Both the position numbers and the translations under genes were made by a program. This document shows, piece by piece, positions 2,725 to 62,465 of a stretch of DNA of 64,000 nucleotides. The DNA is from Gammaproteobacteria bacterium. Lineage in GTDB: Bacteria > Pseudomonadota > Gammaproteobacteria > UBA4575. The stretch is taken from contig CBDCUI010000007.1 in NCBI GenBank assembly GCA_965222615.1, positions 23,479 through 87,478 of the forward strand. The letters run 5' to 3'. Position 1 is the stretch's first letter; the number at the start of each line of letters is the position of its first letter. Below the pieces are notes generated by a model. The model did not search any database and was not told the origin of the DNA. It was given only the letters and a program-made list of their open reading frames with translations.

Positions 2725-2763
2725 TGATTTTGCTGTCTATCAATTAAAAGTAATTTATTCAAC

Positions 2764-3825: not shown

Positions 3826-3826
3826 T

Positions 3827-4216
3827 ATGGAAAATATCAAAGTACCTATTTCACCAGGTGAATTACTAGATAAAATTACTATCTTAGAAATAAAGACAGA
3901 AAAAATTCAAGATAAGGAAAAACTACTAAATATTAAATCTGAGTTAGGTTTATTAAATAATGTTTGGGAAAATTCCATTTCGAATAACGAAACCATGCTT
4001 CAATTAAAAAAGGAACTCAAATGTAATAACCAGAATTTATGGGATATCGAAGATAAAATCCGTATCAAAGAATCAAAACAAGAATTCGATCAAGAATTTA
4101 TCGAGTTAGCTCGCTCAGTGTATATTCAAAATGACAAACGCGCAGCAACAAAAAAAGAAATTAACCTTTTGCTTGGATCGCAAATAATCGAGGAAAAATC
4201 TTATGCAGATTATTGA
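3827..4216 (+). CDS. Small hypothetical protein, predicted helical/coiled-coil, Lys/Glu-rich
   Basis: 129-aa ORF starting 1 nt after the heptosyltransferase stop, which suggests coupling. It has no signal peptide or TM segment. I do not recognise a characterised family. Confidence 0.55.
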   Translation: MENIKVPISPGELLDKITILEIKTEKIQDKEKLLNIKSELGLLNNVWENSISNNETMLQLKKELKCNNQNLWDIEDKIRIKESKQEFDQEFIELARSVYIQNDKRAATKKEINLLLGSQIIEEKSYADY

Positions 4217-4905
4217 TTCGTTTTTACTATTCGATTCCGATACCAAAGCGATAACACATACAACATTATAAATAACGCCAATAAACTTTCTTTAACTTCG
4301 CCAGCTCGTATATCTAATACGTTTGGAATTTCTATATTTAAGCCCTCATAAATTTTCTCATTCCAACTAACTAGCAAAGAAAACAATGCAGCGGGCAAAC
4401 ACACATAAGTCGGCCAAAGCCAATATGCATTTGAGTTTTTGCTAGGATATTTCTTTGTCAACATCCGAAAAAGCGGCACTAACACACCACCAATCAATGC
4501 AGCAAGCGATAACAAAGTTCGAGGAATCTGATCAAAGATCGGACTGGTATTATGCAAATTGGTCTCATTTTGGTCATTAATATTCGACCAAGTTTCGGGC
4601 GTACTCCAACCGAAGAAATGTTGGCCCCAACTTATCTCTTCACCGGCAAAATATATACACCCTAATATCAATAGCACCATCCACCATTTAAACCAAGCAT
4701 GTTTTGAAAAATCATGGGTTTTAATAAAAATCACACTGAAAATAATTGCTATGATTAAATAAATAACCGTTGTCACCTCTACCCATCCAGTTTCCAGATA
4801 CATAAAGGTATATGCCTTGTCACTAACCGCCCTAGAAATATAAGGTGTTAGTAACATTGCTATCGGAAAAAATAGCCAAATCAATTTATGCAAATCTTTA
4901 TCCAT
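4210..4905 (-). CDS. Hypothetical polytopic inner-membrane protein (about 6 TM)
   Basis: The ORF 4210..4956 overlaps the upstream kinase gene by 46 nt. The internal ATG at 4905 (MDKDLHKLIWLFFPIAML...) removes the overlap and starts 5 nt after the kinase stop. Hydrophobic segments run throughout. Confidence 0.55.
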   Translation of the reverse strand: MDKDLHKLIWLFFPIAMLLTPYISRAVSDKAYTFMYLETGWVEVTTVIYLIIAIIFSVIFIKTHDFSKHAWFKWWMVLLILGCIYFAGEEISWGQHFFGWSTPETWSNINDQNETNLHNTSPIFDQIPRTLLSLAALIGGVLVPLFRMLTKKYPSKNSNAYWLWPTYVCLPAALFSLLVSWNEKIYEGLNIEIPNVLDIRAGEVKESLLALFIMLYVLSLWYRNRIVKTNQ

Positions 4906-4910
4906 ATAAG

Positions 4911-5570
4911 TTAATTTTTCCCAAGTCTGCGTTTTTGTTGACCTCGACGTTCCCAATTCTTCAAGCTTCGGTAATCTCTATGAGACTTGTTACGCAGGCC
5001 CAATTTAAACCCTAGAGCCATAAATGGGTTGGGCGGATTCATATGTTGTGGCAAAAGATTAAAATCATATAACTTTGGCATCCAATGATCCCCTTGTTTG
5101 TTTACTAGGATATTCCCGACACTGATATCCAAATCATGCACATTTACTGACTCTGCAGCGCGAACAATTTCATAGCCAATCTTAAGGACTTCATTTGGAA
5201 GATAACCTAACGTGGAAATCAGATTTTTAAGCGTAATTCCTTCCACATACTCCTGCACAAAAGAGTGTGTATAACCACAGCTCTTTGGAAATACTTTTAG
5301 CGGAGCTGCAATGTAATTTTGTATAGATTCAATATTATACAAAATAGAATTACGTTTAAACTCAAATTCAGCAATATCAATATTGCATTTGTCACTATAT
5401 TTTTCAATAAATTCCTTGCGATATATTTTAATGACGACTTCGTGATTTTTATATTTCCCTTTATAGGAAAACGATCGACGGCCTCTACCCAAAAAACTAA
5501 CAACTTGTATTTCTGGTGGTAAGTTTACAGGCTGCTGTAATTCTTGTTCTAGATCTTTGGCTAGCTGCAT
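4911..5570 (-). CDS. Protein-kinase-fold protein, probable LPS-core (heptose/sugar) kinase
   Basis: Kinase-fold motifs: Gly-rich loop LGRGRRSFSY, VVIKIY lysine, catalytic loop HDLDISVGNILV, and YDFN (DFG-like). Located in the LPS-core locus. Confidence 0.65.
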   Translation of the reverse strand: MQLAKDLEQELQQPVNLPPEIQVVSFLGRGRRSFSYKGKYKNHEVVIKIYRKEFIEKYSDKCNIDIAEFEFKRNSILYNIESIQNYIAAPLKVFPKSCGYTHSFVQEYVEGITLKNLISTLGYLPNEVLKIGYEIVRAAESVNVHDLDISVGNILVNKQGDHWMPKLYDFNLLPQHMNPPNPFMALGFKLGLRNKSHRDYRSLKNWERRGQQKRRLGKN

Positions 5571-5747
5571 TCTTCGATGTATCCGTTAAATGAAATTTAA
5601 AAGTGTTTTTTATAAGCAACGTATGCAAAAATGTACCATTAAATCAACCAATGAGAATAATTTAATAAAATTAACATACTAAGCAACTTAATCTGCTTCG
5701 TGAAACTCATACCACATTGTAACTGAGAAACCAAACTAGCTGTAACA

Positions 5748-6614
5748 GTGAACCTACAACAGTACAAACATGGAAAATATTCAGTAAATAAGAGTCTCTC
5801 ATACCATAGTGCGATTGAGAAATGGATACAAACAGGACAATTTTTAGAACGTGAGCAAGATGATCTACGGCTAAATAAAAAGACCAGAAAACGTAATAAG
5901 CTATATTGCTTTCATAGCGAACTCACGAATACAAATCTTGTGATGAAAGTTTCACAAATAAGTAAAGATTACAAATTCTGGAGAAAAGTAGATCTATACA
6001 TAACCAGTATATTTAAAGACTATAATTACAATAGTTATCATAATAGCATGGAACTGCGTGAAGCAGACATCGATACAATTAAGCCCATAGCATATTGGAC
6101 ATATGAATTCTCTTGGCTGAATCGCAAGAGTTATTTTCTATATGAAAAAATTGAAAGCGATTTAACGGTTACAGAACTTTGCAATAAAATCATTGCAACA
6201 AACATCCCTAATAAACGCGAACTAACCGAAGCAATAATCAATCGATGTATTAATATTGTAAAAAAAATCCATGCTGCAAATATTCGACACGATGATCCAC
6301 ACGGCGGCAATATATTAACAAGTCTAGAATTATCGAAGACAAATAAAATTAATGTAGAAGATATAAATAACTCAAGATTCATTTTAATCGACAATGATCG
6401 ATGCACCAAGGCTACTAGTTCAATACCATTTATAAAACAATTCTTTGATCTTAAATGCTTAACCAGATTTAATGTTTGTGAAATCTCACACCAAGATTTA
6501 TTACAACGTTATTTAGGTAAAGATTACAAAAAATATTGGCAATATGTTTTAAATTTTTGGTTATCGGGAGGGTTTAATATCAAAAAACGCATCAATTATC
6601 TATTTGACCGTTAG
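5748..6614 (+). CDS. Lipopolysaccharide kinase (Kdo/WaaP/InaA) family protein
   Basis: GTG start, 288 aa. IRHDDPHGGNILTS and FILIDNDR resemble the WaaP/Kdo-kinase catalytic and Mg-binding loops. Divergent from the previous kinase. Confidence 0.6.
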   Translation: MNLQQYKHGKYSVNKSLSYHSAIEKWIQTGQFLEREQDDLRLNKKTRKRNKLYCFHSELTNTNLVMKVSQISKDYKFWRKVDLYITSIFKDYNYNSYHNSMELREADIDTIKPIAYWTYEFSWLNRKSYFLYEKIESDLTVTELCNKIIATNIPNKRELTEAIINRCINIVKKIHAANIRHDDPHGGNILTSLELSKTNKINVEDINNSRFILIDNDRCTKATSSIPFIKQFFDLKCLTRFNVCEISHQDLLQRYLGKDYKKYWQYVLNFWLSGGFNIKKRINYLFDR

Positions 6615-7855
6615 GATTTCGATTGACTCATATCATGTGATAAAAACGCGGAATACAATAATGCACTAAGTACAGCAAAAAAAGTCCCCTGAGTATGGGT
6701 AGCTATTACTGAATTAACCAAACCACCTACTAATATGGTCACAATCATGCCTTTTGCAATTTGGTTATAAAGTGTAGGCAGTTGATTGCTTATCCTCCAC
6801 TGCTGGAAAAACAGCAAAAACAATAGCATTAAACCCAATAAACCCAATTGCACCCCAATGTTTACATATTCATTATGAGGATTTTGCGTTAACAAGCTTT
6901 TTTTATTTTTAATATTCTGTTCTTGGATATATTCTTTAAACTCTTCTCCAAAACTACCTGTCCCAGTTCCAAAAACTGGGTTTTGTTTAAAACTATCCCA
7001 ACCGCCTCGAGCCCAAATGATGCGCAATCCCAAGGAAGTTGCATAATTACCCTGTTGCATAAATGCCATATCGTCAAACAGCTCGATAATTCTTGTGCGG
7101 GTTATATCACTTGAAAATAAAATGGCTATCACGAAAGCGGGAACGATAATAGATCCGAGAACTGTAATTTTCCAACCCAAGTATTGATAAATCATCAGTA
7201 ACATTAAGGCGATCCATACCATTTGGCCAGAACGTGACGCAATCATCACCAAGGCGTTGTAACTTGCCAGCAAGGCTAAAAAAATAAATACATAGCGAAA
7301 GCGTTTATTGTTGACTGCGTGATGAATAAATAAATATGCTGCAAAAGCCACTAGCATTCCGTGAGCTATGCGACTGCGAAATACGATGTGCTCATCCCCT
7401 ACAGTTGCATAAGCACCAGAATAAATGCTTTCCGGCGACCAACCCGTTAAGGTTAAATAAGACATCAACATCATCAATGTCACTCCAGATAAAAAGGCCA
7501 TATAGCCAATTTTTTTCCATTGTGATTGATGAAATGCAGCTAATAATATTGGAATATATAAAAGCTTGCCGTACTTCTCGAGTACCGCGAGAGCATCATC
7601 TATTGATGCCGAGGTGTACAACAAGCCTATCACAAACATCATAAATAGACATAATGCAATCAGTGCAACCTTATTTTCAGCAATTAATTGATACTTGAAT
7701 TTATAATTACCAGCAATAATTGAAAAAATTAAAAATAATGCGAGAAAGATATTTGGAACTGCTGTGGGTAAAACAATGGCAAACAATGCAGCGCAAGCCA
7801 TTATCTTACTTGTTGATTCAGCAGCTTCAGCTAATTTAGTGTTATGCCATTTCAA
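6611..7855 (-). CDS. O-antigen ligase (WaaL/Wzy_C) family membrane protein
   Basis: 414 aa and about 10-12 TM. The periplasmic loop carries the Wzy_C-type motif NPHNEYVNIGVQLGLLGL. The gene sits between LPS kinase genes and hldE. Confidence 0.75.
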   Translation of the reverse strand: MKWHNTKLAEAAESTSKIMACAALFAIVLPTAVPNIFLALFLIFSIIAGNYKFKYQLIAENKVALIALCLFMMFVIGLLYTSASIDDALAVLEKYGKLLYIPILLAAFHQSQWKKIGYMAFLSGVTLMMLMSYLTLTGWSPESIYSGAYATVGDEHIVFRSRIAHGMLVAFAAYLFIHHAVNNKRFRYVFIFLALLASYNALVMIASRSGQMVWIALMLLMIYQYLGWKITVLGSIIVPAFVIAILFSSDITRTRIIELFDDMAFMQQGNYATSLGLRIIWARGGWDSFKQNPVFGTGTGSFGEEFKEYIQEQNIKNKKSLLTQNPHNEYVNIGVQLGLLGLMLLFLLFFQQWRISNQLPTLYNQIAKGMIVTILVGGLVNSVIATHTQGTFFAVLSALLYSAFLSHDMSQSKS

Positions 7856-7901
7856 GATTATTTACTTAACAAATCGGTAAGCTGCTTTAATACAGATAGT
7901 G

Positions 7902-9320
7902 TTAAGAATTTAGTATCGAATCAATAATTGTAGTCGTTGAGCAACCTTTAATATAGGGAGTGATTACAACCTCACCTCCATATTTACTAACAAGTTCATA
8001 TTCTGCTAGCTCTTCTTTCTTGTAATCTCCACCTTTAACATATACGTCCGGTTTTAATTCTTTAATTAACCGTAAAGGAGTATCCTCAGAAAACGGTATA
8101 ATCCAGTCTATACAACTCAACTCTTCTAAAACCGCAATACGATTTTGCAAACTACATATCGGGCGACTATCTCCCTTTAACTTTTTAACTGACATGTCGT
8201 CATTGATTGCGACAACTAATCGATCCCCTTTTGATTTTGCTTCTCGTAGACATGCGATGTGTCCCTGATGAATTAAATCAAAACAACCATTTGTAAAGAC
8301 TATTTTTTCATTATTTTCTTTAGCATCTAACAATGACTGCTTTAATTCACTTAGATCTGCAATGCTCTTGCCTCTACTTGTGAGCATTCTCAAAGCCGCA
8401 TCTAACTCATTTACTGTTACTGAAACCGTGCCTAACTTACCCACAGAGATACCAGCGCCAAGATTTGCGATTTTAACTGCATCGACAAGCCCATAACCCG
8501 CAGACATCGCGGCAGCCAACAAACCAACAACCGTATCACCAGCACCGGTTACATCATAAACTTCTTTGGCTTGAGTAGAAAAATGTCTAGGTTGCTCACC
8601 TTGCAAAAAAAGTGACATACCCTTTTCGCTGCGTGTAATTAGCAAGGCATCAAGATTAAGAGCTTGACACATTTTTACGGCTTGCTCCTCTAGTTCATCT
8701 TCATTATCACATTCACCCGAAACCTGTATAAATTCAGCATAATTTGGCGTGATAGCCGTTGCATTTTTATATTTTTTAAAATCATCGCCCTTGGGATCAA
8801 CAATTACCATTTTGTCCTTATCGCGGGCAATTTTGATTATTTTCTCAACTTGATTTACTGCGCCTTTACCATAATCAGATATAACCACCACATCGTGACT
8901 CGATATTAGCTCTTTACATAGTTTTATCAACTCAGAAATATCGACCTCGAAATCACTGCTCTCATAATCGAGCCTGAGTAATTGTTGGTTTCGACTTAAC
9001 ACTCGCAACTTGGCAGAAGTTTTACAATTTTTATTCTGGATAATATTAGATTTGATATCGGTTTTACTAAGTAAACTTATTAACTTTGTCGCATATTCAT
9101 CGTTTCCAACTGCTCCAATTAATGTGGCTGATGCACCAAGAGCACAAATATTCATTGCCACATTTGCCGCACCACCCAAACGCTCTTCTCTATTTTGAAT
9201 ATTAACAATAGGAACAGGTGCTTCAGGTGAAATACGTGCAGTGTCGCCATGCCAATATTGATCTAACATGACATCGCCAATTATTAGAACCTTAGCACTA
9301 CTGAGGTTACTTAAATTCAT
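7902..9320 (-). CDS. hldE: Bifunctional D-beta-D-heptose 7-phosphate kinase / heptose 1-phosphate adenylyltransferase
   Basis: 472 aa. The N-terminal ribokinase-like domain has VLIIGDVMLDQYWHG...ISPEAPVP and DVTGAGDT. The C-terminal cytidylyltransferase domain has VFTNGCFDLIHQGH. Confidence 0.95.
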   Translation of the reverse strand: MNLSNLSSAKVLIIGDVMLDQYWHGDTARISPEAPVPIVNIQNREERLGGAANVAMNICALGASATLIGAVGNDEYATKLISLLSKTDIKSNIIQNKNCKTSAKLRVLSRNQQLLRLDYESSDFEVDISELIKLCKELISSHDVVVISDYGKGAVNQVEKIIKIARDKDKMVIVDPKGDDFKKYKNATAITPNYAEFIQVSGECDNEDELEEQAVKMCQALNLDALLITRSEKGMSLFLQGEQPRHFSTQAKEVYDVTGAGDTVVGLLAAAMSAGYGLVDAVKIANLGAGISVGKLGTVSVTVNELDAALRMLTSRGKSIADLSELKQSLLDAKENNEKIVFTNGCFDLIHQGHIACLREAKSKGDRLVVAINDDMSVKKLKGDSRPICSLQNRIAVLEELSCIDWIIPFSEDTPLRLIKELKPDVYVKGGDYKKEELAEYELVSKYGGEVVITPYIKGCSTTTIIDSILNS

Positions 9321-13360: not shown

Positions 13361-14389
13361 GTGAAACTTTACCCTAGTATTCCGTTACGCTGTGCATACA
13401 TGGCCTTTTTATACTTGATATGTGCCATCGTCAGTGCCGCAGAAGTCAACGTCTACTCTGCTAGAAAAGAAGACTTAATAAAACCATTGTTGACGCAGTT
13501 TGAAACCAGCACAGGTATCAAAGTAAACCTAATTACTGGTAAAGCCGACGCCCTACTGCAACGCATTATCAGCGAAGGTAAAAATAGCCCTGCTGATATT
13601 TTAATCACTACGGATGCTGGCCGCTTGTATCGTGCCCAACAAGCAAATGTATTACAAGCCATTCAATCCGAAATTCTTGAAACTACAATTCCTAAACAAT
13701 ATCGTGAACCACAAGGCTATTGGTTTGGGTTGTCGCTCAGAGCACGCCCCATTGTGTATGCTATAGATCGAATTAAACCAGAGCAACTCTCAACCTATGA
13801 AGCACTCACCGATTCACAATGGAAAAATAAAATTTGTATTCGTTCCTCAGACAATATCTATAACCAATCTCTAGTTGCCTCATTACTTGCGCATCATGGC
13901 GAGGAAAAAGCTCTTAATTGGGCAACAACGTTCGTAACTAATTTTGCACGTCCTCCTCAAGGTGGAGACCGTGATCAAATTAAGGCCGTTGCGGCCGGTC
14001 AATGTGATATCGCAATTGTAAACAATTACTATCTAGGAAAAATGCTCACATCAAGCGATGCGTCAGAACATGAAGCTGCTAAACAAGTAAAGCTCTTTTG
14101 GCCAAATCAAGATGATCGAGGAACACATGTAAATATTAGCGGTGGTGCTGTTACAACTGCGGCAAAAAATAAAGATTCGGCAATTAAATTATTAGAATTT
14201 TTAGCCAGCGATTCTGCACAACAGTGGTATGCAGATACTAATCTTGAATATCCAATTAAGCCTGGGATTCAACCCAGTGAAATTTTAAAATCATGGGGAG
14301 AATTTAAGGCCGATACCCTAAGCTTACATCGCTTAGGTGAACTCAATGCTGAAGCTGTGATGATAATGGATCATGCGGCATGGAAATGA
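13361..14389 (+). CDS. Fe(3+) ABC transporter periplasmic substrate-binding protein (FbpA/AfuA-like)
   Basis: GTG start preceded by GGAGG (13349-13353), plus a signal peptide. VNVYSARKEDLIKPLL...ADILITTDAGRLY is typical of ferric-iron-binding proteins. Confidence 0.85.
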   Translation: MKLYPSIPLRCAYMAFLYLICAIVSAAEVNVYSARKEDLIKPLLTQFETSTGIKVNLITGKADALLQRIISEGKNSPADILITTDAGRLYRAQQANVLQAIQSEILETTIPKQYREPQGYWFGLSLRARPIVYAIDRIKPEQLSTYEALTDSQWKNKICIRSSDNIYNQSLVASLLAHHGEEKALNWATTFVTNFARPPQGGDRDQIKAVAAGQCDIAIVNNYYLGKMLTSSDASEHEAAKQVKLFWPNQDDRGTHVNISGGAVTTAAKNKDSAIKLLEFLASDSAQQWYADTNLEYPIKPGIQPSEILKSWGEFKADTLSLHRLGELNAEAVMIMDHAAWK

Positions 14390-14407
14390 TATTGAGAACT
14401 GATAAAG

Positions 14408-16099
14408 ATGAGCAGCAAAAGCGCCACGCTTATTGAGTCGCCTAATAAATATTTTATTTGGTTACAAAAAACAGATACTGGTTGGCTAGTATGTACATTA
14501 CTGCTAGCCCTTTTACTCAGTATCCCCGTTATTTCAGTATTGTCTTCCATGTTGCTGCCGACTAGCGAGGTTTGGCAACATTTAAAATCAACGGTACTTT
14601 CAAATTATATTTTTAATTCACTACTGTTAGTAGTTGGGGTAAGTATTGGTACACTGGTAATAGGAGTATCCACTGCATGGCTATGCAGTGTATTCGAGTT
14701 TACTGGACGTAAAATTTTAAGCTGGGCACTTTTGCTTCCATTAGCATTCCCACCTTACATCATTGCCTATACTTATACCGGCATGCTTGATTTTAGCGGA
14801 CCGCTACAAACCTATCTTAGAAATACATTTGCCTGGCAATATGGAGATTATTGGTTCCCCCAGGTACGTTCCTTAAGTGGCGCTATATTGATGTTATCTT
14901 TAGTGCTGTATCCCTATGTTTACTTGCTGACACGTAACGCTTTTTCCGAACAATCTGCAAGTTTTCGCGAAGCTAGCCATTCACTTGGCGTAAGCCTAGG
15001 AAAAACTTTTTTATCCATTGCAATTCCGTTGGCGCGCCCCACTATTGTTGCAGGACTAACACTTGTAACGATGGAAACCCTTGCGGACTACGGAACCGTA
15101 CAATATTTTGGCATTCCTACATTCACTACCGGTATATTTCGAACTTGGTTTGGGCTTGGCGATCGAATTGCAGCAACACAATTAGCTAGTATTTTATTAT
15201 TATGCGTATTTGCAGTCATTCTGATTGAGCGTTATTCGCGTAAATCGGCCAAATACCAACATCTAAATCATTCAAATAAAACTTGGAGATATCCTTTATC
15301 TGGCACGAAATCATTGCTCGCTTTAGTATTTTGTAGCGCTCCAATCATATTTGGATTTATCATCCCTGCAATTCAGTTAAGTGTGTGGAGTATTCAAACA
15401 GCGCCAAATATCATTGATAGCTCTTTCTTCACACTAATTTTTAACACTATTCTATTGGCGATAATCGTTGCATTGATTGTAATTATGGCCGCTGCTTTTC
15501 TCGCATATGGGAAACGCGTAAGCACTCATTATTTAATACCTTATACTGTAAACATCAGCGCCATGGGTTATGCAGTACCTGGAATTATTATTGCAGTTGG
15601 CGTGTTACTACCCTTTGCTTGGTTAGATAATACAATCGATGCCTGGTTGCAAAATAATTTTGGGATTTCTAGTGGTTTACTTTTTACCGGAACATTAGCC
15701 GCATTAGTCTTTGCTCATGTAGTGCGTTTTTTGGCCATTGGACTTAACTCAGTAGAAGCTAGCCTGACTAAAATTCACCGCAACATTGATGATGCGGCCC
15801 AATTACTAGGCCAAGGGACGTTTGACCGATTTAGAAACATCCATTTGCCGCTAATTTATACTGGCATACTCACCGCTGGACTATTTGTTTTTGTTGAAGT
15901 GATAAAAGAATTACCTGCCACACTTGTATTACGACCTTTTAATTTTAATACCCTCGCTGTGCGTACTTATGAACTCGCCTCTGATGAACGTTTAGCAGAT
16001 TCTGCCTGTAGTGCGCTGTTTATCGTAGCAGTAGGTATTCTTCCAATACTGATTTTAAATCGCTCTATCAGTAATCGTGGAGATCGATATGGCACTTAG
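14408..16099 (+). CDS. Iron ABC transporter permease (fused double-domain FbpB type)
   Basis: 563 aa and about 12 TM, with two internally repeated permease halves each carrying an EAA-like loop (EASHSLGVS... and DAAQLLGQG...). Confidence 0.85.
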   Translation: MSSKSATLIESPNKYFIWLQKTDTGWLVCTLLLALLLSIPVISVLSSMLLPTSEVWQHLKSTVLSNYIFNSLLLVVGVSIGTLVIGVSTAWLCSVFEFTGRKILSWALLLPLAFPPYIIAYTYTGMLDFSGPLQTYLRNTFAWQYGDYWFPQVRSLSGAILMLSLVLYPYVYLLTRNAFSEQSASFREASHSLGVSLGKTFLSIAIPLARPTIVAGLTLVTMETLADYGTVQYFGIPTFTTGIFRTWFGLGDRIAATQLASILLLCVFAVILIERYSRKSAKYQHLNHSNKTWRYPLSGTKSLLALVFCSAPIIFGFIIPAIQLSVWSIQTAPNIIDSSFFTLIFNTILLAIIVALIVIMAAAFLAYGKRVSTHYLIPYTVNISAMGYAVPGIIIAVGVLLPFAWLDNTIDAWLQNNFGISSGLLFTGTLAALVFAHVVRFLAIGLNSVEASLTKIHRNIDDAAQLLGQGTFDRFRNIHLPLIYTGILTAGLFVFVEVIKELPATLVLRPFNFNTLAVRTYELASDERLADSACSALFIVAVGILPILILNRSISNRGDRYGT

Positions 16100-17138
16100 G
16101 TTGGATGTGAGAAATGTAAGTGTGGCGCTACAAAACAAAGAAATTGTAAAAAACGTCTCCTTGCAGTTAGAACCTGGTCAAATTACCTCAATTTTAGGCC
16201 CTAGCGGGTGCGGCAAAACCACCCTATTACGTGCTCTAGCTGGCTTTCAGTCAATATCTAATGGCGAAATCTTTGTACATGAAAAATTATTAAATAACAG
16301 CACATATAAACTAGTACCAGAAAAACGCAATATAGGAATGATGTTTCAAGACCTTGCGCTGTTTCCTCACTTAACTGTAGAACAAAATATTCGTTTTGGT
16401 CTTAAGTCTTTAACCAAGCAAGAACAAATTGCAAGAATTCAACACGTTATTGAACTCACAGATCTAAACAAACAAGAACATAAATACCCACATCAACTAT
16501 CAGGCGGCCAACAACAACGTGTGGCTTTAGCACGTGCATTAGCTCCCAAACCTGAAATTCTGCTGCTTGATGAACCATTTTCTAGCTTAGACCCTGATTT
16601 GCGTGAACAGGTCGCTACCGAAGTACGCAAAATTCTTAAACATGAAAATGTCACTGCAATACTGGTTACACACGACCAACATGAGGCCTTTGCTTTGGCA
16701 GATGATATTGGAGTCATGGTAGATGGGAAAATCGCGCAATGGGATAGTGCTTACAATATTTACCATAAACCAAAAACGAGATTCGTTGCAGATTTCGTTG
16801 GACTCGGGACGATGATACCTGCCAAAGTTATCGATGCATCAACTGTAGAAACCGAATTTGGTCAAGTGAATGGAGTCATAAATTCAGATTTTAAGACTGG
16901 GGAAGAAGTGGATTTATTAGTACGACCCGATGATATTCCACATGATGACAGTAGCCCCATTACCGCATTGGTGGAAGAGAAGCGTTTTCGAGGAGCTGAG
17001 TTTCTCTATAAGTTGCGCTTGCGAAGTGGCAACTTTGTACAGTGTTATGCACCGAGCCACCATAACCACCAGTTAGGGGAACCGATTGGCATAAAGCTCG
17101 ATTTAGAGCATTTGGTCATATTTCCCAAAAACAGATAG
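16089..17138 (+). CDS. Iron ABC transporter ATP-binding protein (FbpC-like)
   Basis: Motifs: Walker A GPSGCGKTT, signature LSGGQQQRVALARAL, Walker B LLLDEPFSSLD. The ATG at 16089 has GGAG 6 nt upstream and is preferred over the GTG at 16077. Confidence 0.9.
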   Translation: MALRLDVRNVSVALQNKEIVKNVSLQLEPGQITSILGPSGCGKTTLLRALAGFQSISNGEIFVHEKLLNNSTYKLVPEKRNIGMMFQDLALFPHLTVEQNIRFGLKSLTKQEQIARIQHVIELTDLNKQEHKYPHQLSGGQQQRVALARALAPKPEILLLDEPFSSLDPDLREQVATEVRKILKHENVTAILVTHDQHEAFALADDIGVMVDGKIAQWDSAYNIYHKPKTRFVADFVGLGTMIPAKVIDASTVETEFGQVNGVINSDFKTGEEVDLLVRPDDIPHDDSSPITALVEEKRFRGAEFLYKLRLRSGNFVQCYAPSHHNHQLGEPIGIKLDLEHLVIFPKNR

Positions 17139-17523
17139 ATATCAAAGATTAAATTTAGACCACTTGGCCAATTCCCTAAAAGCCAATCGAAAAAGCTGAA
17201 TTGAGAAACAGAAAATAGCTTAATTCGGGATAAGATCGTGGGGTATACCCAAAATCCCGCTACAGGGCTGCATAGCATGAGCTCAAAGCGAGAATCCAAA
17301 ATTAGACTTGACCTTCATGACATAAACCCCAACAATATTAAGGTAGGATATCGACAATCTTTGGTGATTCCAGGGATTGTGGTGATACATGGATGCATCA
17401 CCCACACATATGAGTAAGTTCATATGTGTAGTGAGAAAAAAGAAAATTCAATTTTCTTTTTTTTGTCTTTGAAAAAGTCAGGACGGCTTTTTTCAGGGTA
17501 TTTCTAAACTAGAGGAGCCAAGC

Positions 17524-17895
17524 ATGAGAATTAGTAAAGCCTTAGTCTATGTATTAATGCTGTCTTTTACATTTATGCAAACCGCACCCGCCATTGCGGG
17601 GATCGTAGGCACAGACAGATTTTTATCCGAACAATCCATTCAACAAGATCGTGAAAATCTTCGTTCTTTGATGACACGGGATGAAGTGCGTTCACTATTA
17701 CAACAAAACGGTCTTACTGTTGAACAAGCGCAGCAACGTGTTGATTCGTTAACCGATTCAGAAGTGCGACAACTGGCTCAGAAATTTGAAGAACTACCTG
17801 CAGCTGGCGATGCGGCAGTGGTTATTTTAGTTATTGCTTTAGTCGTAATAATTCTAGAGCTGGCAGGAATCACAGATATCTTTACTGGTATTTAA
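17524..17895 (+). CDS. PA2779-like small exported protein, copy 1 (signal peptide + helical domain + C-terminal TM anchor)
   Basis: 123 aa with an RBS AGAGGAG upstream. The signal peptide ends AIA|GIVGT. Conserved core LTVEQAQQRVDSLTDSEVRQLAQKF, then PAAGD, a hydrophobic helix and a terminal ILELAGITDIFTGI. The family name is from memory. Confidence 0.75.
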   Translation: MRISKALVYVLMLSFTFMQTAPAIAGIVGTDRFLSEQSIQQDRENLRSLMTRDEVRSLLQQNGLTVEQAQQRVDSLTDSEVRQLAQKFEELPAAGDAAVVILVIALVVIILELAGITDIFTGI

Positions 17896-17896
17896 A

Positions 17897-18280
17897 GTGT
17901 CTTGTAAATTAATGCTGGGAAAACATTTATTACTGTGTTTACTATCGGTTTCGCTTGCCTTTTTACAGATATCCCCTGCTTACGCGGGCATTGTCGGCAC
18001 TGAAAAATCATTTGCCGAATATTCAGCGCAACATGATCGTCAAGTTTTACGCGACCTTATGGCACGCGATGAGGCACGTGAATTACTAGCCACTAATGGC
18101 TTAACTGTCGAACAAGCTCAACAAAGAGTAAATGCATTAACGGACAGTGAAGCACGTCAACTTGCAGAAAAATTCGATGAACAGCCAGCTGGTGGAATTT
18201 TGGTAGCCTTGCTGATTATTTTCCTCGTATTTATAATTCTAGAAATGGCAGGAGTAACCGACGTATTTACTGGAATTTGA
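17897..18280 (+). CDS. PA2779-like small exported protein, copy 2 (tandem paralog)
   Basis: 127 aa, GTG start 1 nt after the copy-1 stop (alternative ATG at 17912). It has the same architecture as copy 1 and is about two-thirds identical by eye: AYA|GIVGT, LTVEQAQQRVNALTDSEARQLAEKF, PAGG, TM helix, ILEMAGVTDVFTGI. Confidence 0.75.
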   Translation: MSCKLMLGKHLLLCLLSVSLAFLQISPAYAGIVGTEKSFAEYSAQHDRQVLRDLMARDEARELLATNGLTVEQAQQRVNALTDSEARQLAEKFDEQPAGGILVALLIIFLVFIILEMAGVTDVFTGI

Positions 18281-19290
18281 TTTTAACTAAGAAACTTACT
18301 TGTTTAGCAAATGCCCGCACTTGTGCGGGCATTTTTTTCTTTTGGCTTATACTTTTTGCCTGTGCAACCCCGCAAACCAAGCAATTAATGCTACAAAAAC
18401 CACAAGATCTACCTGATCAAGCATTAATTTCCGAGGTTCCTTTTTACCCACAAGAACAATTTCATTGTGGACCCGCCACTTTAGCGATGGCAATGAATTT
18501 TTATGGCGACACCTTATCTGCTGAAGAAATTGCTAAAGACGTGTTTACTCCTAACTTGAAAGGCAGCCTTCAAGTTGAAATGAAAGCAGCAGTTCGCAAA
18601 CGCGGTATGTTGGCTTATGAACTAACACCAGAACTAGTGTATCTGCTCGCCGAAGTATCTGTAGGACATCCAGTTATAGTTTTGCAGAATCTGTCTATAA
18701 AATGGTATCCAATTTGGCATTACGCTCTTGTAATTGGCTACAATTTAAAGCGAAATACTTTAATTTTACACACCGGGAAAAATTCTAACTATGAAGTTGC
18801 GATAGGTACATTCGAACTGACCTGGCAACGAGCAAACAATTGGGCATTAGTCATACTACCCAGTGATACTTTACCTAACGATCGCAATCTTATAAATGTA
18901 TTACAAGCCGCTGTTGATCTGGAAGAAGTGGGACAAATTGAACATGCGAATCGTGCCTATCAAGCAATAATTAAACGATGGCCAGAAAGTTTCGTCGCCT
19001 TAATGGGTGTAGCGAATACCCACCTACTCTTAAAACAACCAGAACAAGCAACGAAAAGTTACCTACGTGCAGCGGAGCTGAAACCTAATGAATCCGATAT
19101 CTACAATAACCTTGCTTACAGTCTACTTGCGCAATCCTGTTACAACGCGGCACTCAACTCAGTGCGCTGTGCCATTGCTCTACAGCCGAGCAATCTCGAA
19201 TACCAAAGTTCACTCAAAGAGATCACCGCTTTCGATGACAAGAATGATGAAAAAAATTGCCCCATCTTCAAATGTTCAAAACAAAAGTAA
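18277..19290 (+). CDS. PA2778-like C39-type cysteine peptidase with C-terminal TPR repeats, predicted lipoprotein
   Basis: The TTG start overlaps the upstream stop (aTTTGA). Lipobox LFAC (Cys29), nucleophile motif QFHCGPATLAMAMNFYG (Cys64), and a His candidate in IWHYALVIGY. The C-terminal half is TPR-like (YNNLAYSLLAQSCYNAAL...). Confidence 0.75.
   Translation: MILTKKLTCLANARTCAGIFFFWLILFACATPQTKQLMLQKPQDLPDQALISEVPFYPQEQFHCGPATLAMAMNFYGDTLSAEEIAKDVFTPNLKGSLQVEMKAAVRKRGMLAYELTPELVYLLAEVSVGHPVIVLQNLSIKWYPIWHYALVIGYNLKRNTLILHTGKNSNYEVAIGTFELTWQRANNWALVILPSDTLPNDRNLINVLQAAVDLEEVGQIEHANRAYQAIIKRWPESFVALMGVANTHLLLKQPEQATKSYLRAAELKPNESDIYNNLAYSLLAQSCYNAALNSVRCAIALQPSNLEYQSSLKEITAFDDKNDEKNCPIFKCSKQK
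18311..18338 (+). terminator. Intrinsic-terminator-like hairpin embedded in the 5' end of the peptidase gene (candidate attenuator)
   Basis: atgcccgc-acttgt-gcgggcat forms an 8-bp GC-rich stem and is followed by a T7 run. It lies inside codons 12-21 of the ORF starting at 18277. Confidence 0.5.
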
Positions 19291-19337: not shown

Positions 19338-21044
19338 TTGGTAATAAGCAGTTATGGTGTAGACGTGGCTAAGCAAACAAGAAAATTCTCATCTATGGTT
19401 GTCGATGGTATCGAACGAGCACCTAGTCGAGCCATGTTGCGTGCGGTTGGCTTTAAAGACGATGACTTCAGCAAACCCCAAATTGGCATCGCATCAACCT
19501 GGAGCATGGTCACGCCATGCAATATGCATATTGATACACTAGCCGATGAAGCCGCACTAGGTGTAAATCAAGCAGGCGGTAAAGCGGTAGTCTTTAATAC
19601 CATCACCATTTCCGATGGTATCTCGATGGGTACCGAAGGTATGAAATACTCATTGGTTTCACGTGAGGTAATTGCCGATTCGATAGAAACCGTTGTCGGC
19701 TGCGAAGGTTTTGACGGCATTGTTGCCATTGGTGGATGCGATAAAAATATGCCTGGCTGTTTGATTGCCCTAGCAAGGCTGAATCGACCCGCGGTGTTTG
19801 TATATGGCGGTACCATCCTGCCGGGAAGCTATAAAAATAAAAAAGTCGATGTCATCTCCGTATTTGAAGCCGTTGGTCAACACGCGCAACAGTTGTTATC
19901 AGACGATGATTTAAAACGAGTGGAATCTACTGCCATACCCGGTCCTGGCTCTTGTGGTGGTATGTATACTGCGAATACGATGGCATCTGCAATTGAAGCA
20001 CTGGGGATGAGTTTGCCAAATAGTTCGGCCCAAAATGCAATTTCAAAAGATAAAAAACAAGATTGCCTAGCTGCAGGACAAGCAGTGATAAAACTAATCG
20101 AAAAAGATATATGCCCTAAAGACATCATGACGAAAAAGGCGTTCCAAAATGCTATTACAGTCGTGACGGCCTTAGGTGGATCTACTAATGCGGTTTTACA
20201 CTTACTCGCCATGGCACATGCCATCGGAATAAAACTTAATATAGATGAATTTACTCGAATAGGAAAAAAAGTACCGGTGCTGGCTGATTTACGCCCAAGT
20301 GGCAAATATATGATGTCAGAACTGATCGAAATCGGTGGCATACAACCCTTGATGCGTATGTTATTGGATAGAGGTTTATTACATGGCGATTGTCTAACCG
20401 TTACTGGTAAATCATTAAAACAAAATTTGCGTGGGATTAAGCACTATCCGAAAACACAAAATATCGTTCACGATTTCAATGACCCAATTAAAAAAGATGG
20501 ACACTTAGTTGTGTTATATGGAAACCTCGCCCCTGAAGGAGCAGTGGCCAAAATCTCTGGCAAAGAAGGTTTGCGTTTTACTGGTAAAGCACGTGTGTTT
20601 GCATCGGAAGAAAAAGCTTTAGAAAAAATTTTGGATGGCGGAATAAAAAAAGGCGATGTCATCGTCATTCGTTATGAAGGACCGAAAGGGGGACCAGGCA
20701 TGCGCGAAATGTTATCGCCTACCTCGGCCATTATGGGTAAAGGTTTAGGTAAAGATGTAGCATTAATCACGGATGGTCGCTTTTCGGGTGGCAGCCATGG
20801 ATTTGTGGTAGGACATATCACCCCTGAGGCGGCAATTGGAGGACCCTTAGGTTTAATAAAAAATGGTGATCAAATAACCATCGATGCCGAAAAACGTGAG
20901 ATTAACGTTAAGCTCACTAAACAAGAACTCAAGCAACGCAAAAAGAAGTGGCGTCCACCAAAACCACGTTATAAGCATGGTGTTTTGGCAAAGTATGCAC
21001 AACAAGTATCCTCAGCTTCTTTGGGCGCAGTAACTGACTTATAA
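19338..21044 (+). CDS. ilvD: Dihydroxy-acid dehydratase
   Basis: ERAPSRAMLRAVGF, CDKNMPG, GSCGGMYTANTM and the C-terminal LITDGRFSGGSHGFVVGHITPEA are IlvD signatures. The start is uncertain: TTG 19338, GTG 19365 or ATG 19395. Confidence 0.93.
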   Translation: MVISSYGVDVAKQTRKFSSMVVDGIERAPSRAMLRAVGFKDDDFSKPQIGIASTWSMVTPCNMHIDTLADEAALGVNQAGGKAVVFNTITISDGISMGTEGMKYSLVSREVIADSIETVVGCEGFDGIVAIGGCDKNMPGCLIALARLNRPAVFVYGGTILPGSYKNKKVDVISVFEAVGQHAQQLLSDDDLKRVESTAIPGPGSCGGMYTANTMASAIEALGMSLPNSSAQNAISKDKKQDCLAAGQAVIKLIEKDICPKDIMTKKAFQNAITVVTALGGSTNAVLHLLAMAHAIGIKLNIDEFTRIGKKVPVLADLRPSGKYMMSELIEIGGIQPLMRMLLDRGLLHGDCLTVTGKSLKQNLRGIKHYPKTQNIVHDFNDPIKKDGHLVVLYGNLAPEGAVAKISGKEGLRFTGKARVFASEEKALEKILDGGIKKGDVIVIRYEGPKGGPGMREMLSPTSAIMGKGLGKDVALITDGRFSGGSHGFVVGHITPEAAIGGPLGLIKNGDQITIDAEKREINVKLTKQELKQRKKKWRPPKPRYKHGVLAKYAQQVSSASLGAVTDL

Positions 21045-21070
21045 ATAAACTATTAAAAGCATAAATTGTC

Positions 21071-21099
21071 GGCCTATCCTAAATAGTTTAGGATGGCCT
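21071..21099 (+). terminator. Possible terminator hairpin after ilvD
   Basis: ggcctatcctaaa-tag-tttaggatggcc is an imperfect stem of about 12 bp located 27 nt after the ilvD stop. There is no clear T-run. Confidence 0.3.
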
Positions 21100-21166
21100 C
21101 GCTTGATAATTACTACTTAAGTATTACCACTAAAAACAACGAAAAATTTCCCTGAAGGAGTTGTCG

Positions 21167-21805
21167 ATGGCGACATTACTATCCCCTGAAGAACTAGAAG
21201 CCATAATGGAACGTAAAAACAAGATGCGTCGTGAGGCCTATGACCGTCGTAATGCACAAGAAGATAAAGATGAGCTCAGTGCACGTGCTTGCGAGAAGTT
21301 TATGGCACTACCTGAATATCAAAATGCCAACGTAGCAATGTGGTATATCGATTGCAGATCCGAAACACGTACTAAACCCCACCTATTAGAAGAAGTCGCT
21401 AAAGGCGAGAAAAAAATTATCGTTCCTTATTGCACCGAAGACGAAAATGGTGAAAACAAGCTAGGTCTTTGGTGGATGGAAAGCTTAGAGGAAATGGTAG
21501 TAGGTAAATGGAATATTCTGGAGCCGCCAAAAGAACTGTGGGGCAACCCTGAAAAAGAGGTCGAGGCCGAAGAGCTCGACATCATCATGGTTCCTGGTGT
21601 CGGCTTTGATCGAAAAGGCGGACGTATGGGCAACGGACAGGGTTACTATGATCGTTTACTTGAAAAGGCACGACCGGATTGTCCTTTAATAGCATTATGC
21701 TATGAATCACAGTTGTTTGATGAGATTCTAGTCGCACCACATGATGTCTACATGGATAAAGTTATCACTGAAGATGCAGTCTATGATGGCATAGGCCGAG
21801 GATAA
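21167..21805 (+). CDS. 5-formyltetrahydrofolate cyclo-ligase family protein
   Basis: MVPGVGFDRKGGRMGNGQGYYDRLL is the family signature. The ATG at 21167 has GAAGGAG 6 nt upstream (the ORF track starts at TTG 21161). The charged N-terminus is longer than I remember for typical members. Confidence 0.8.
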   Translation: MATLLSPEELEAIMERKNKMRREAYDRRNAQEDKDELSARACEKFMALPEYQNANVAMWYIDCRSETRTKPHLLEEVAKGEKKIIVPYCTEDENGENKLGLWWMESLEEMVVGKWNILEPPKELWGNPEKEVEAEELDIIMVPGVGFDRKGGRMGNGQGYYDRLLEKARPDCPLIALCYESQLFDEILVAPHDVYMDKVITEDAVYDGIGRG

Positions 21806-21811
21806 TCGCTT

Positions 21812-22735
21812 ATGGCTGCAAAAATTGATGACACTTATGCAGAGGCGTTTAAAAGTTTATATACAGAATTTTTAATCACTGCACGCGATCGCAAATGGCT
21901 AGACCATGCTGTGAACGCAGCAACTGGGAATGCCTCAAGTTCAATTTTATGTGACTGCGAAGCAGGCATGGATCGTTATGTAGGCCCTGGTGGAGATGAG
22001 AGTTTTACAACACCAGATGGTCGCCCTGGTGCAATTGTGCAGTTACATGTTCCTCGTTTTCGTAAAGATCGCGTAGAAGCCCTAGAACGTTCGGCATTAG
22101 TTCGTATTAGTCAAAATGTATTAACCTGCCCAACTGCTTCTTGCTTTAATTTGATCGATTCAGAAGAGTATTATCACATGGGCCGTAAAGTAGCTTACTT
22201 TGGCAACGGCTATCAAAAACGCATTGAACGCTTTGGTCGCAAGATGTGGTGGATTCCGATTCTTGGTGGTGAATTTATTTTAGATCGTCGCTTGGGTTAC
22301 GCAGACGGCCTCATGGGTGGCAATTTATGGTTCTTTGGTGACAGTGTCGATTCCGCATTATTGGCTGCAGAAAAAGGGGTGGAAGCGATACTACCAATGC
22401 CGGGGGTCATAACCACCTTTCCAGGTGGCATTGCGGGCAGTGGTTCCAAGGCCGGCAGTAATTACGACTTCACGATTGCCAGCACTTACGAAAAATTTTG
22501 TCCTTTACTGCAAGATGATCCAACGGTAGAAGCAGGACTGCCTGAAGGTGTTAACTGTGTAATGGAGATCATTATGAATGGTCAAGGTATGCAACCTATT
22601 GTCGATGCCACCCAAGCAGCAATCAAAGCTTCTGTAGACACTCCGGGCTTAATTATGATCTCTGCGGGTAATTATGGTGGGCGTTTGGGGAAATCCTTTA
22701 TCTACCTAGATCCCTCCAAACAACCTACAGCTTAA
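21812..22735 (+). CDS. ftr: Formylmethanofuran:tetrahydromethanopterin N-formyltransferase (Ftr/FhcD family)
   Basis: 307 aa, collinear with archaeal Ftr as I remember it: DTYAEAF..LITA, TPDGRPG, LTCPTASCF, YFGNGYQ, IPILGGEF, GGNLWFFG, FPGGIAGSGSKAGS, ISAGNYGGRLGK. Confidence 0.85.
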   Translation: MAAKIDDTYAEAFKSLYTEFLITARDRKWLDHAVNAATGNASSSILCDCEAGMDRYVGPGGDESFTTPDGRPGAIVQLHVPRFRKDRVEALERSALVRISQNVLTCPTASCFNLIDSEEYYHMGRKVAYFGNGYQKRIERFGRKMWWIPILGGEFILDRRLGYADGLMGGNLWFFGDSVDSALLAAEKGVEAILPMPGVITTFPGGIAGSGSKAGSNYDFTIASTYEKFCPLLQDDPTVEAGLPEGVNCVMEIIMNGQGMQPIVDATQAAIKASVDTPGLIMISAGNYGGRLGKSFIYLDPSKQPTA

Positions 22736-22883
22736 GAAGCTCTGAGTTTATTCTTCTACTTCGTTAAAAAAGTATTTCGAAATGCTCATGTACTTAGTAT
22801 GTACACTGCGCTTTCGAAATATTTTTTGCCTCGTATAAGACGCTCATGTTATTGAGTAACATGAGCTAATAAATCAGAACTCC
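22736..22883. repeat. Long imperfect palindromic intergenic repeat, copy A (nested-hairpin element)
   Basis: The left arm gaagctctgagtttattcttctacttcgttaaaaaag pairs with the right arm ttttttgcctcgtataaga[..]aataaatcagaactcc. The right arm contains a nested perfect 10-bp hairpin gctcatgtta-ttgag-taacatgagc (22842-22866). The arms match copy B and the core matches copy C, in both cases in inverse orientation. Confidence 0.8.
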
Positions 22884-22895
22884 CTTTAATTTGTT

Positions 22896-23774
22896 ATGAC
22901 TTCGGAATTTGAAAAAACATCTGGTGGGGCCATCTTGATGGATGGAAAAGCTGTCGCTGAAGTACTGCAAACTAGAGTAGCCAACAAATTAGCACAGTCT
23001 CCCAACTCCAAAGTAACTCTTGCAACAGTATTAATTGGTAACGACCCTGCTAGTAATCTTTATGTAGAAATGAAGCAACGTCGTGCAACTGCGGTCGGTA
23101 TACAGTCTAAGCATATACAACTATCTAGCGATGTATCCATGCCTCAAGCATCTGAAGAAGTCTTAACACTGGTTGAAAATCCCCATGTACATGGAATTCT
23201 GATTCAGTTACCACTTCCTCCTCAACTCGATACTCACAAGATTATTGATTTGCTCCCAGCTGAAAAAGATGTGGATGGCTTAAGTAACAACAATCTTGGC
23301 AAGTTATTACGTGGAGAACCTGGACTAGTACCCTGTACACCCTTAGGGGTAATGTGTTTATTGGAGCACTATAATATTCCTACTGCTGGCCAACGAGCGG
23401 TGGTAATTGGCCGCTCCACATTAGTAGGACTACCACAAGTATTATTATTGGCACGCAAAGGAATCGATGCGACCGTTACGCTAGCGCATTCACGCAGTGG
23501 TGATTTAGTGGAAATTACAAAATCAGCAGACATCATTATTGCTGCAGCTGGCATGGCTCGTTTAGTTACCAAGAAACATGTCAAGCCTGGCGCCACCGTA
23601 ATTGATGTTGGGGTAACACGTACCGATGACGGTATTCAAGGTGATGTAGATTTTGATCAAGTACAATCCACTGCAGGCGCCATCACTCCCATGCCGGGCG
23701 GTACAGGACCGATGACCGTAGCATGTTTATTGGAAAACACATTGCATGCAGCCAAGTTGCAAAATGCGCTCTAA
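22896..23774 (+). CDS. folD: Bifunctional methylene-THF dehydrogenase / methenyl-THF cyclohydrolase
   Basis: 292 aa. LATVLIGNDPASNLYVEMKQR, GILIQLPLP, PCTPLGV, VVIGRSTLVG.P and PMPGGTGPMTVA are FolD signatures. Confidence 0.93.
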   Translation: MTSEFEKTSGGAILMDGKAVAEVLQTRVANKLAQSPNSKVTLATVLIGNDPASNLYVEMKQRRATAVGIQSKHIQLSSDVSMPQASEEVLTLVENPHVHGILIQLPLPPQLDTHKIIDLLPAEKDVDGLSNNNLGKLLRGEPGLVPCTPLGVMCLLEHYNIPTAGQRAVVIGRSTLVGLPQVLLLARKGIDATVTLAHSRSGDLVEITKSADIIIAAAGMARLVTKKHVKPGATVIDVGVTRTDDGIQGDVDFDQVQSTAGAITPMPGGTGPMTVACLLENTLHAAKLQNAL

Positions 23775-40153: not shown

Positions 40154-40233
40154 CTGTTTTTACTCCTAGCAAAGCAATAATGTAATAAATTTAAGATATA
40201 ATTTTCGCTTAAATCTGCAACTGGAGAAAAAAT

Positions 40234-40662: not shown

Positions 40663-40699
40663 ATAATTATTTATAAATATTAGAAACATAAAGTTATAC

Positions 40700-40948
40700 G
40701 TGAAAAGCAAACAAAACATTATTCAATCCCCTCTCATCTGGTTGGTGCTCAGCTTGACACTAGGATTAGCACCTTTCTTACCTGAACCTCATGTCTGGGA
40801 AAAACTTAAGTGGATTCTAGCAGGTGCTAAAGGGATGCGGCCAATTGATTGGTTTGATTTCGTTTTACATGGAACACCGTGGTTGCTATTGATAATTTCT
40901 GTACTCAGTAAATTTAAATCGACTAAAACAGATTTGACTAAGGATTAA
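40700..40948 (+). CDS. Small hypothetical membrane protein (2 TM)
   Basis: 82-aa ORF with a GTG start and two hydrophobic segments. It overlaps the convergent ORF 40938..41390 by 11 nt. Whether it is coding is unverified. Confidence 0.4.
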   Translation: MKSKQNIIQSPLIWLVLSLTLGLAPFLPEPHVWEKLKWILAGAKGMRPIDWFDFVLHGTPWLLLIISVLSKFKSTKTDLTKD

Positions 40949-41390: not shown

Positions 41391-41467
41391 AGTCGTTAGA
41401 ATCTATTTCACGTTTTTTTATAAAATGAGTATAATCAAATCAGTTCATCTAAAAAAAGGCATAAATA

Positions 41468-62457: not shown

Positions 62458-62465
62458 CTATAATC

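Follow-up and report, generated by a model that had tools for sequence, protein, structure and literature searches.

A PA2779/PA2778 gene module in a UBA4575 gammaproteobacterium: a candidate periplasmic substrate-protease system with a terminator-like hairpin in the peptidase signal-peptide codons

A co-encoded pair of exported small proteins and a C39-type cysteine peptidase

A stretch of 64,000 nucleotides (nt) from a gammaproteobacterium of the UBA4575 lineage (GenBank assembly GCA_965222615.1, contig CBDCUI010000007.1, positions 23,479 to 87,478 of the forward strand) was analysed in the present study and is called the window below, with all coordinates counted from its first letter. Three tandem genes in this window encode two paralogous exported small proteins of the PA2779 family (g1 and g2) and a lipoprotein cysteine peptidase of the PA2778 family (g3). 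The best-supported reading is that they constitute a substrate-protease module, in which the peptidase would cut its co-encoded small proteins at a P-A-G-G-type element next to the membrane; judging from motif conservation and a structural model, we put the probability of this reading at about 0.5. In addition, a hairpin followed by a T-run, which the original prediction for this locus (made from the letters alone) had overlooked, was detected within the codons of the peptidase signal peptide. The features of the module are as follows.

17512-17517, forward strand: Shine-Dalgarno sequence GAGGAG, 6 nt 5' of the g1 ATG, read from the sequence
17524-17895, forward strand: g1, PA2779-family small protein of 123 amino acids (NF033919, DUF6627)
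17897-18280, forward strand: g2, second PA2779-family paralogue, 127 amino acids from GTG 17897 or 122 amino acids from ATG 17912
18277-19290, forward strand: g3, PA2778-family cysteine peptidase lipoprotein of 337 amino acids (NF033920)
18309-18344, forward strand: terminator-like hairpin AAATGCCCGCA-CTTG-TGCGGGCATTT followed by TTTTTTCTTTT, within the g3 signal-peptide codons

The three open reading frames (ORFs) lie where they had been predicted, and profile searches bore out the family names that had been proposed. Both small proteins matched NF033919 'PA2779 family protein' (g1, E 3.2e-29, 101.6 bits; g2, E 4.9e-29, 101.0 bits; cutoff 40) as well as DUF6627 (Pfam PF20332; g1, 89.6 bits, E 2e-25; g2, 88.6 bits; cutoff 27), and g3 matched positions 2-255 of the 255-position model NF033920 'PA2778 family cysteine peptidase' (E 1.2e-95, 319.7 bits; cutoff 150). 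All of these scores are well above the cutoffs.

For the reading frames, the GAGGAG of g1 is the only strong ribosome-binding site of the three-gene unit, with no comparable site for g2 or g3. The GTG 17897 of g2 begins 1 nt past the g1 stop, and the public gene call for g2 begins at ATG 17912 (122 amino acids). The TTG start of g3 overlaps the TGA stop of g2 within ATTTGA, as had been noticed before, and TTG 18277 is the sole in-frame start that gives g3 a signal peptide, the next one (ATG 18388) falling after the lipobox Cys29. Given the single good Shine-Dalgarno sequence, the 1-nt distance between g1 and g2, and the overlap between g2 and g3, the three genes look translationally coupled.

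To place the locus in its family, the peptidase alignment was scanned against one genome per species of GTDB, which returned at least 597 relatives, and 80 loci from beta-, gamma-, and zetaproteobacteria and Desulfobacterota were kept. Metagenome loci were collected with a single small protein (P0031) as query, 74 of them being informative. A PA2779-family ORF was located directly upstream of the peptidase and in the same direction in 79 of the 80 genome loci, and the peptidase directly followed the small gene in 66 of the 74 informative metagenome loci (absent in 8). The peptidase start falls about -8 to +22 nt from the small-gene stop in most loci, and translational coupling is general in the family. 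The window thus shares gene order and tight coupling with the catalogued NF033920/NF033919 pair, named after PA2778 and PA2779 of Pseudomonas aeruginosa. Clustering of all neighbouring ORFs of the 80 loci yielded no third conserved neighbour, indicating that the module is self-contained.

The small proteins and their juxtamembrane element

The family architecture is complete in both small proteins, i.e., a signal peptide, an L(T/S)DxE helical domain, a P-A-G-G-type element, and one C-terminal transmembrane (TM) helix. They are 64% identical across 107 residues (E 2e-48), in line with the two-thirds previously estimated by eye. In g1, the signal peptide (residues 1-25, ending AIA|GIVGT) is followed by a helical ectodomain, P-A-A-G at 17797-17808 (within PAAGD), a TM helix at residues ~97-116, and the end ITDIFTGI, while in g2 P-A-G-G occupies 18185-18196 (GG at 18191-18196), with the TM helix directly after it and the end VTDVFTGI. 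Common to both copies are the AxA|GIVGT signal-peptide end, the LTVEQAQQRV..LTDSE.RQLA.KF block, the TM helix, and the terminus (I/V)TD(I/V)FTGI; these elements, PAAGD, and PAGG had all been read correctly in the earlier description. On these sequence features, the small proteins are predicted to be exported by Sec, to lose their AxA signal peptide, and to be anchored by one C-terminal TM helix, with a helical ectodomain of ~70 residues presumably facing the periplasm.

A small-protein profile search of 1.84 billion representatives (E up to 1e-3) gave 3369 matches (50% identity clusters), and conservation was assessed on the best 150 of these representatives plus g1 and g2 (152 sequences). The orthologues of g1 are P0011-P0029 and those of g2 are P0002-P0010. 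The candidate cleavage element, L-P(97%)-A(96%)-G(94%)-G(80%, A 11%), is among the best-conserved parts of the small proteins and ends 0-6 residues ahead of the TM helix across the family. Conservation of a GG-type element among orthologues had been left as a check on the prediction; PAGG was found in 109 of the 152 sequences, the rest being mostly PAGA (16), PAAG (6), PAGQ (5), and PAGS (4).

Several other positions are conserved family-wide. The signal peptide ends in A-x-A (A at -1, 96%), the mature N-terminus reads (A/G)(M/L/I)(V/I)xT (T 94%), Arg, Gly, and Arg positions reach 96%, 99%, and 100%, respectively, and the E of L(T/S)DxE is kept in 97%. The TM helix ends T(84%)D(88%)..G(97%).T(98%)(D/K/N)(V/I)F(90%)(P)(F), and a basic tail usually comes next; 125 of 144 family sequences have one or more K or R there. 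Compared with typical PA2779 proteins, the window copies are atypical in their last ~10 residues, having L-E in place of T-D and ending in FTGI, with neither basic tail nor F-P-F, and g1 has PAAG rather than PAGG. The FTGI terminus had been called invariant; this is true of the near clade only, the consensus of the family as a whole being F-P-F plus a basic tail.

The peptidase

In Pfam, g3 matched Peptidase_C39_2 (the best match, E 4e-11), Peptidase_C39 (E 7e-7), and tetratricopeptide repeat (TPR) families. It carries a lipobox L-F-A-C with Cys29 (codon 18361-18363), a C39-like domain at about residues 47-196 with Cys64 (CGP; 18466-18468) and His148 (WHYA; 18718-18720), and a TPR domain at about residues 205-317 (18889-19227) with three repeats, so that the CGP nucleophile and TPR repeats of the original prediction are present. 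Two peptidase alignments, A2 with 18 sequences and A3 with 62 sequences, were examined. Cys64 and His148 are invariant in both, and the oxyanion Gln59 is at least 90% conserved in the larger one. The lipoprotein assignment is also supported, as the lipobox Cys29 is invariant in the 18 sequences and at least 90% conserved in the 62, and nearly all 80 loci show a lipobox.

The AlphaFold2 (AF2) model of g3 was confident (predicted local distance difference test (pLDDT) 92, predicted template modelling score (pTM) 0.86). Foldseek matched it with the C39-like peptidase 3erv, with the ComA peptidase domain (PEP; 3k8u) at a TM-score on target length of 0.82, and with leader-bound LahT150 (6mpz) at 0.74-0.80, more weakly with the pseudomurein endoisopeptidase PeiR (0.52), and for the remainder with TPR proteins. 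In sequence, Cys64 and His148 align with the CGP and HY motifs of ComA, which contain its active-site Cys17 and His96. Taken together, sequence and model indicate that g3 carries a C39-fold cysteine peptidase domain (Gln59, Cys64, and His148) fused to three TPR repeats. The confident C39-fold model thus keeps the predicted catalytic dyad and differs from canonical C39 peptidases in one respect, the third catalytic residue (see below).

Two Cys pairs were also observed in g3, C289/C298 (SC…RC, 19141-19170) and C328/C333 (CPxxxC, 19258-19275), in the TPR domain and C-terminal tail. They are kept in the near clade and absent from distant homologues. They may form periplasmic disulfides, consistent with a periplasmic protein.

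Proposed cleavage and the evidence weighed

In the proposed mechanism, the unit of TPR and peptidase domains would dock the ectodomain and its last amphipathic helix (L-T/S-D-x-E...L), and the enzyme would then cut after the juxtamembrane P-A-G-G of g2 or P-A-A-G of g1. The cut would shed the ~70-residue ectodomain and leave a TM stub of 27-35 residues. Most transcripts would end after the small genes, so that the substrate would far exceed the enzyme, as in precursor/processing-enzyme operons. We infer the cleavage step from the conserved element, the enzyme fold, and the pairing of the genes. In particular, the cleavage motifs of C39 peptidases have been reported as GG and GA (PMC5557850), and the PAGG/PAGA of the family matches them, which counts for a cleavage site.

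The closest enzymes in fold, the C39 double-glycine leader peptidases (ComA PEP 3k8u, LahT150 6mpz, and PCAT1), share with g3 the papain-like C39 fold and the Gln/Cys/His residues, and the partner here likewise has Gly-Gly, Gly-Ala, Ala-Gly, or Gly-Ser after an amphipathic helix. Unlike them, g3 appears to be a stand-alone periplasmic lipoprotein with TPR repeats rather than the N-terminal domain of an ABC (ATP-binding cassette) exporter that acts in the cytoplasm. A precedent for a stand-alone periplasmic C39 peptidase is FapD of the Pseudomonas Fap amyloid system, a Sec-exported and catalytically active C39-type enzyme for which action at GG/GA motifs of a co-encoded protein has been proposed, although its target was still unclear in the 2017 study (PMC5557850). 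FapD differs in belonging to a six-gene amyloid secretion operon and in having no TPR domain, and a lipoprotein anchor is not described for it there (PMC5557850). No Fap genes were found among the clustered neighbours of the 80 loci.

A further parallel is LapG/LapA, in which a periplasmic Cys protease likewise frees a protein from a membrane-proximal retention element. LapG cleaves LapA at a (T/P)AAG di-alanine site, and g1 has P-A-A-G. LapG nevertheless belongs to a different peptidase family from the C39-like PA2778, the family-wide motif here is PAGG rather than PAAG, and no LapD- or LapA-type genes were found nearby among the clustered neighbours of the 80 loci.

Several observations weigh against cleavage of the small proteins by g3. 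First, an Asp at lipobox position +2 occurs in none of ~78 lipoboxes, from which the Lol rule of Escherichia coli predicts an outer-membrane anchor with a linker of ~20-25 residues, whereas the PAGG lies 0-6 residues from the inner-membrane helix. Second, the position of the third catalytic Asp of ComA (Asp112), extrapolated by eye, falls at Thr166 of g3 and is Ser or Thr across the family in the 18-sequence alignment, in apparent contrast to the C39 leader peptidases; a nearby position, Asp156, is at least 90% conserved in the 62 sequences and is Asn in the window copy. Third, PAGG is matched in conservation by both the TM/cytoplasmic motif F..L..TD..G.T(D/K/N)(V/I)F(P)F and the N-terminus of the mature protein; this is unexpected for a disposable anchor and suggests functions beyond anchoring. 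Moreover, the best Pfam match, Peptidase_C39_2, is a family also annotated in phage cell-wall lysins, ~11% of the metagenome small genes have no adjacent peptidase, and the AF2 model of g2, with four short helices and the TM helix, is of low confidence (pLDDT 52, pTM 0.22).

No functional study of PA2778, PA2779, or DUF6627 was found in the literature, only passing mentions. Both families are catalogued under these names, and the locus of the window belongs to them as an ordinary member, if slightly atypical in its two copies and truncated tail. What the present analysis adds is quantitative support for the GG-type site, model-based support for an active C39 enzyme, the topological caveat given above, and the embedded terminator, so that a name-only annotation becomes a concrete model with a scissile site, catalytic residues, and a predicted size shift. 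If cleavage occurs, the module would clearly exemplify a periplasmic C39 protease whose dedicated substrate is known.

Alternative readings

The same conservation that counts against a disposable anchor would fit a stable partner, i.e., a small protein acting as an inner-membrane-anchored regulator, inhibitor, or tether, with PAGG as hinge or pseudo-substrate, while the targets of the enzyme would lie elsewhere in the envelope, possibly among peptidoglycan peptides. By analogy, g3 would then be a fused counterpart of the outer-membrane TPR lipoprotein NlpI and the cysteine peptidase MepS, and envelope proteases presented or regulated by TPR lipoproteins are indeed established (NlpI). A lipobox with no inner-membrane retention signal, the annotation of Peptidase_C39_2 in endolysins too, the presence of PeiR among the Foldseek matches, and the strongly conserved TM end and mature N-terminus all favour such a partnership. 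However, Gram-negative peptidoglycan has no Gly-Gly, so that a PAGG conserved at 80-97%, with variants of the C39 type, would be left with no catalytic role; the fold is nearer to the double-glycine proteases (0.74-0.82) than to PeiR (0.52), and a small protein in large excess would suit a substrate better than a 1:1 regulator. We therefore regard a partner role, and with it the likeness to NlpI and MepS, as rather unlikely.

A broader version of the substrate-protease reading can also be considered, in which the P-A-G-G element acts together with the conserved TM helix and the tail as a dedicated signal for C-terminal processing, PA2778 is a periplasmic enzyme of C39 descent that either releases the ectodomain or transfers it to an envelope acceptor, and the ratio of the two proteins is hard-wired by a terminator that doubles as signal-peptide codons. 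We consider this combination a long shot; if true, at least about 600 proteobacterial species, P. aeruginosa among them, would possess a system of protein maturation or sorting that has so far gone unrecognised.

Transfer proper, in which the Cys peptidase would form an acyl-enzyme at Gly-Gly and pass the ectodomain to a peptidoglycan or lipid acceptor in the manner of a sortase, exosortase, or rhombosortase, is very improbable. The layout of motif, ~20-residue TM helix, and tail with K or R in most family members, together with a dedicated, adjacent enzyme, is that of GlyGly-CTERM/rhombosortase, PEP-CTERM/exosortase, and LPXTG/sortase, and the Cys nucleophile would serve such chemistry. Nevertheless, the enzyme family is different, the signal sits on one dedicated small protein and not on a range of cargo proteins, conservation of the TM segment far exceeds that in known sorting signals, and the window copies end in FTGI with no basic tail. 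The GlyGly-CTERM and PEP-CTERM hidden Markov models (HMMs) gave no match at E up to 1, no rhombosortase, exosortase, or sortase is encoded in the locus, and we know of no C39 transpeptidase.

In canonical C39 systems, the product is the part after GG, which raises a bacteriocin- or peptide-like logic, with the ectodomain as an oversized leader and the product as a hydrophobic C-terminal peptide of 27-35 residues freed after Gly-Gly. The high conservation of the C-terminal segment and the order of structural gene, leaky terminator, and processing enzyme, which resembles peptide-biosynthesis operons, would agree with it. Double-glycine leaders, however, have L-S-x-x-E-L-x-x-I-x-G-G at -12 to -1 and no Sec signal, whereas the 'leader' here would be a 70-residue Sec-exported protein in which the block resembling it, L(T/S)DxE(V)xxL, is found at -20 to -12, so that GG is 8 residues further away. 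The likeness to LSxxELxxI was thus judged weak, given this offset, its alternative reading as an ordinary helix N-cap, and the lack of HMM support (bacteriocin leader models gave no match at E up to 1). As transporter, immunity, and modification genes are not conserved nearby in the 80 loci, we hold a peptide product to be extremely improbable.

Finally, PA2778 was listed in a TraDIS (transposon-directed insertion-site sequencing) study of P. aeruginosa as a candidate toxin upstream of a small coding sequence (CDS) depleted for insertions under an active H1 type VI secretion system (H1-T6SS), with no follow-up there (bioRxiv 10.1101/733030), but its reading as an effector with a small downstream immunity gene is largely refuted by the family-wide lipoprotein signal peptide and the lack of a conserved downstream gene in the 80 loci, and the conserved partner is upstream and exported, in a module that spans many lineages with unrelated flanks. 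More generally, the finding of no conserved third gene in the 80 loci led us to reject transporter-linked, Fap-like, LapD/LapG-like, and T6SS-immunity readings alike.

A terminator-like hairpin within the signal-peptide codons

The terminator scan located a GC-rich hairpin of 11 pairs at 18309-18334, followed by the T-run, with a folding energy of -17.5 kcal/mol (z -3.3). The region encodes ...NARTCAGIFFFW..., i.e., NARTCAGIFFF, within the g3 signal peptide, and the hairpin uses the minority codons GCC, CGC, GCG, and GGC, a choice that, for these amino acids, has a joint probability of ~0.002.

Support for the hairpin rests on its positional enrichment over background and on a compensatory change in an orthologue. 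Using a fixed terminator criterion of our own and scoring the region from -10 to +110 nt relative to the small-gene stop, terminator-like sites were detected in 48 of 80 loci from genomes (counting the window) and in 42 of 76 from metagenomes, compared with a same-strand background in those loci of ~0.015 sites per 120 nt (~1.5% expected). Stem sequences vary widely among lineages. In the L162 orthologue, GCCCGC/GCGGGC has become GCCCGT/ACGGGC, which replaces Ala with Thr and yet keeps the stem.

From this sequence evidence, we infer that the hairpin acts as a leaky terminator of the small gene, dual-coded with the signal peptide of the peptidase, and that through it the small protein probably outnumbers the enzyme. 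In agreement with such an excess, the strong constitutive promoter candidates listed for P. stutzeri include that of a PA2779-family gene (PMC10155442). No description of a terminator hairpin dual-coded with a signal peptide was found, and this regulatory feature is new here.

Variations on the arrangement were also seen. In L001 (3800-4100), the closest species-representative genome, the peptidase is 63% identical to g3, and a single small gene is directly followed by a separate hairpin, with a spacer of ~185 nt between the hairpin and the TTG start of the peptidase. On plasmid pAZKH of Azoarcus sp. KH32C (L081:2890-3100), where RefSeq annotates the PA2779/PA2778 pair by those names, the RefSeq peptidase CDS begins 185 nt past the small gene; a start at an in-frame GTG just past the small-gene stop would give it a lipoprotein signal peptide (…LSLAAC), and the true start thus probably lies upstream of the annotated one. 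The small protein of Azoarcus stops right after its TM helix and has no TD..G.T..F motif. The orphan small genes of four metagenome loci (L085, L088, L090, and L150) retain the downstream hairpin. In three of these (L088, L090, and L150), a similar small ORF with two TM helices lies directly upstream of the small gene, identified as LapA_dom (PF06305) in L088 and L150. In L145 (470-1400), the gene after the small protein encodes a different exported protein, resembling by eye the N-terminus of a lytic transglycosylase; its start overlaps the small-gene stop (ATGA), and here too a GC-rich hairpin lies in the signal peptide.

Distribution, duplication, and genomic context

The module is widespread. 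The 3369 small-protein clusters and the at least 597 species-level genomes encoding the peptidase include P. aeruginosa. Only two matches were located on megaplasmids, indicating that the module is not cargo of mobile elements. A candidate Rosetta-stone fusion in L035 was checked, and the long upstream ORF proved not to be a fused small protein.

The tandem small genes of the window are a minority trait relative to typical PA2779/PA2778 loci, as two copies occurred in 4 of 81 genome-derived loci (window included) and in 2 of 80 metagenome loci. The synteny of the window lineage comprises an Fe3+ ABC transporter, DUF6627, the peptidase, ilvD, a 5-formyltetrahydrofolate (5-FTHF) cyclo-ligase, and Ftr, with two DUF6627 copies in L162 and one in L163-L166, implying that the duplication is lineage-specific. 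L162 shares the order of ilvD, cyclo-ligase, and FTR, L001 again has ilvD and the cyclo-ligase, and in L163-L166 the peptidase is followed by ilvD.

In the window itself, the module is preceded by an Fe3+-type ABC importer (binding protein, permease, and ATPase; 13361-17138). On its other side (19338-23774) lie ilvD, the 5-FTHF cyclo-ligase, an ORF at 21812-22735 corresponding to the Pfam FTR/FTR_C gene of the syntenic L162, and a further ORF that resembles FolD by eye; the flanking context likewise looks methylotroph-like by eye. Moreover, the G+C content is 32-35% at 2001-8000, 40001-44000, and 58001-64000, compared with 39-45% elsewhere in the window, and these segments could be islands of different origin.

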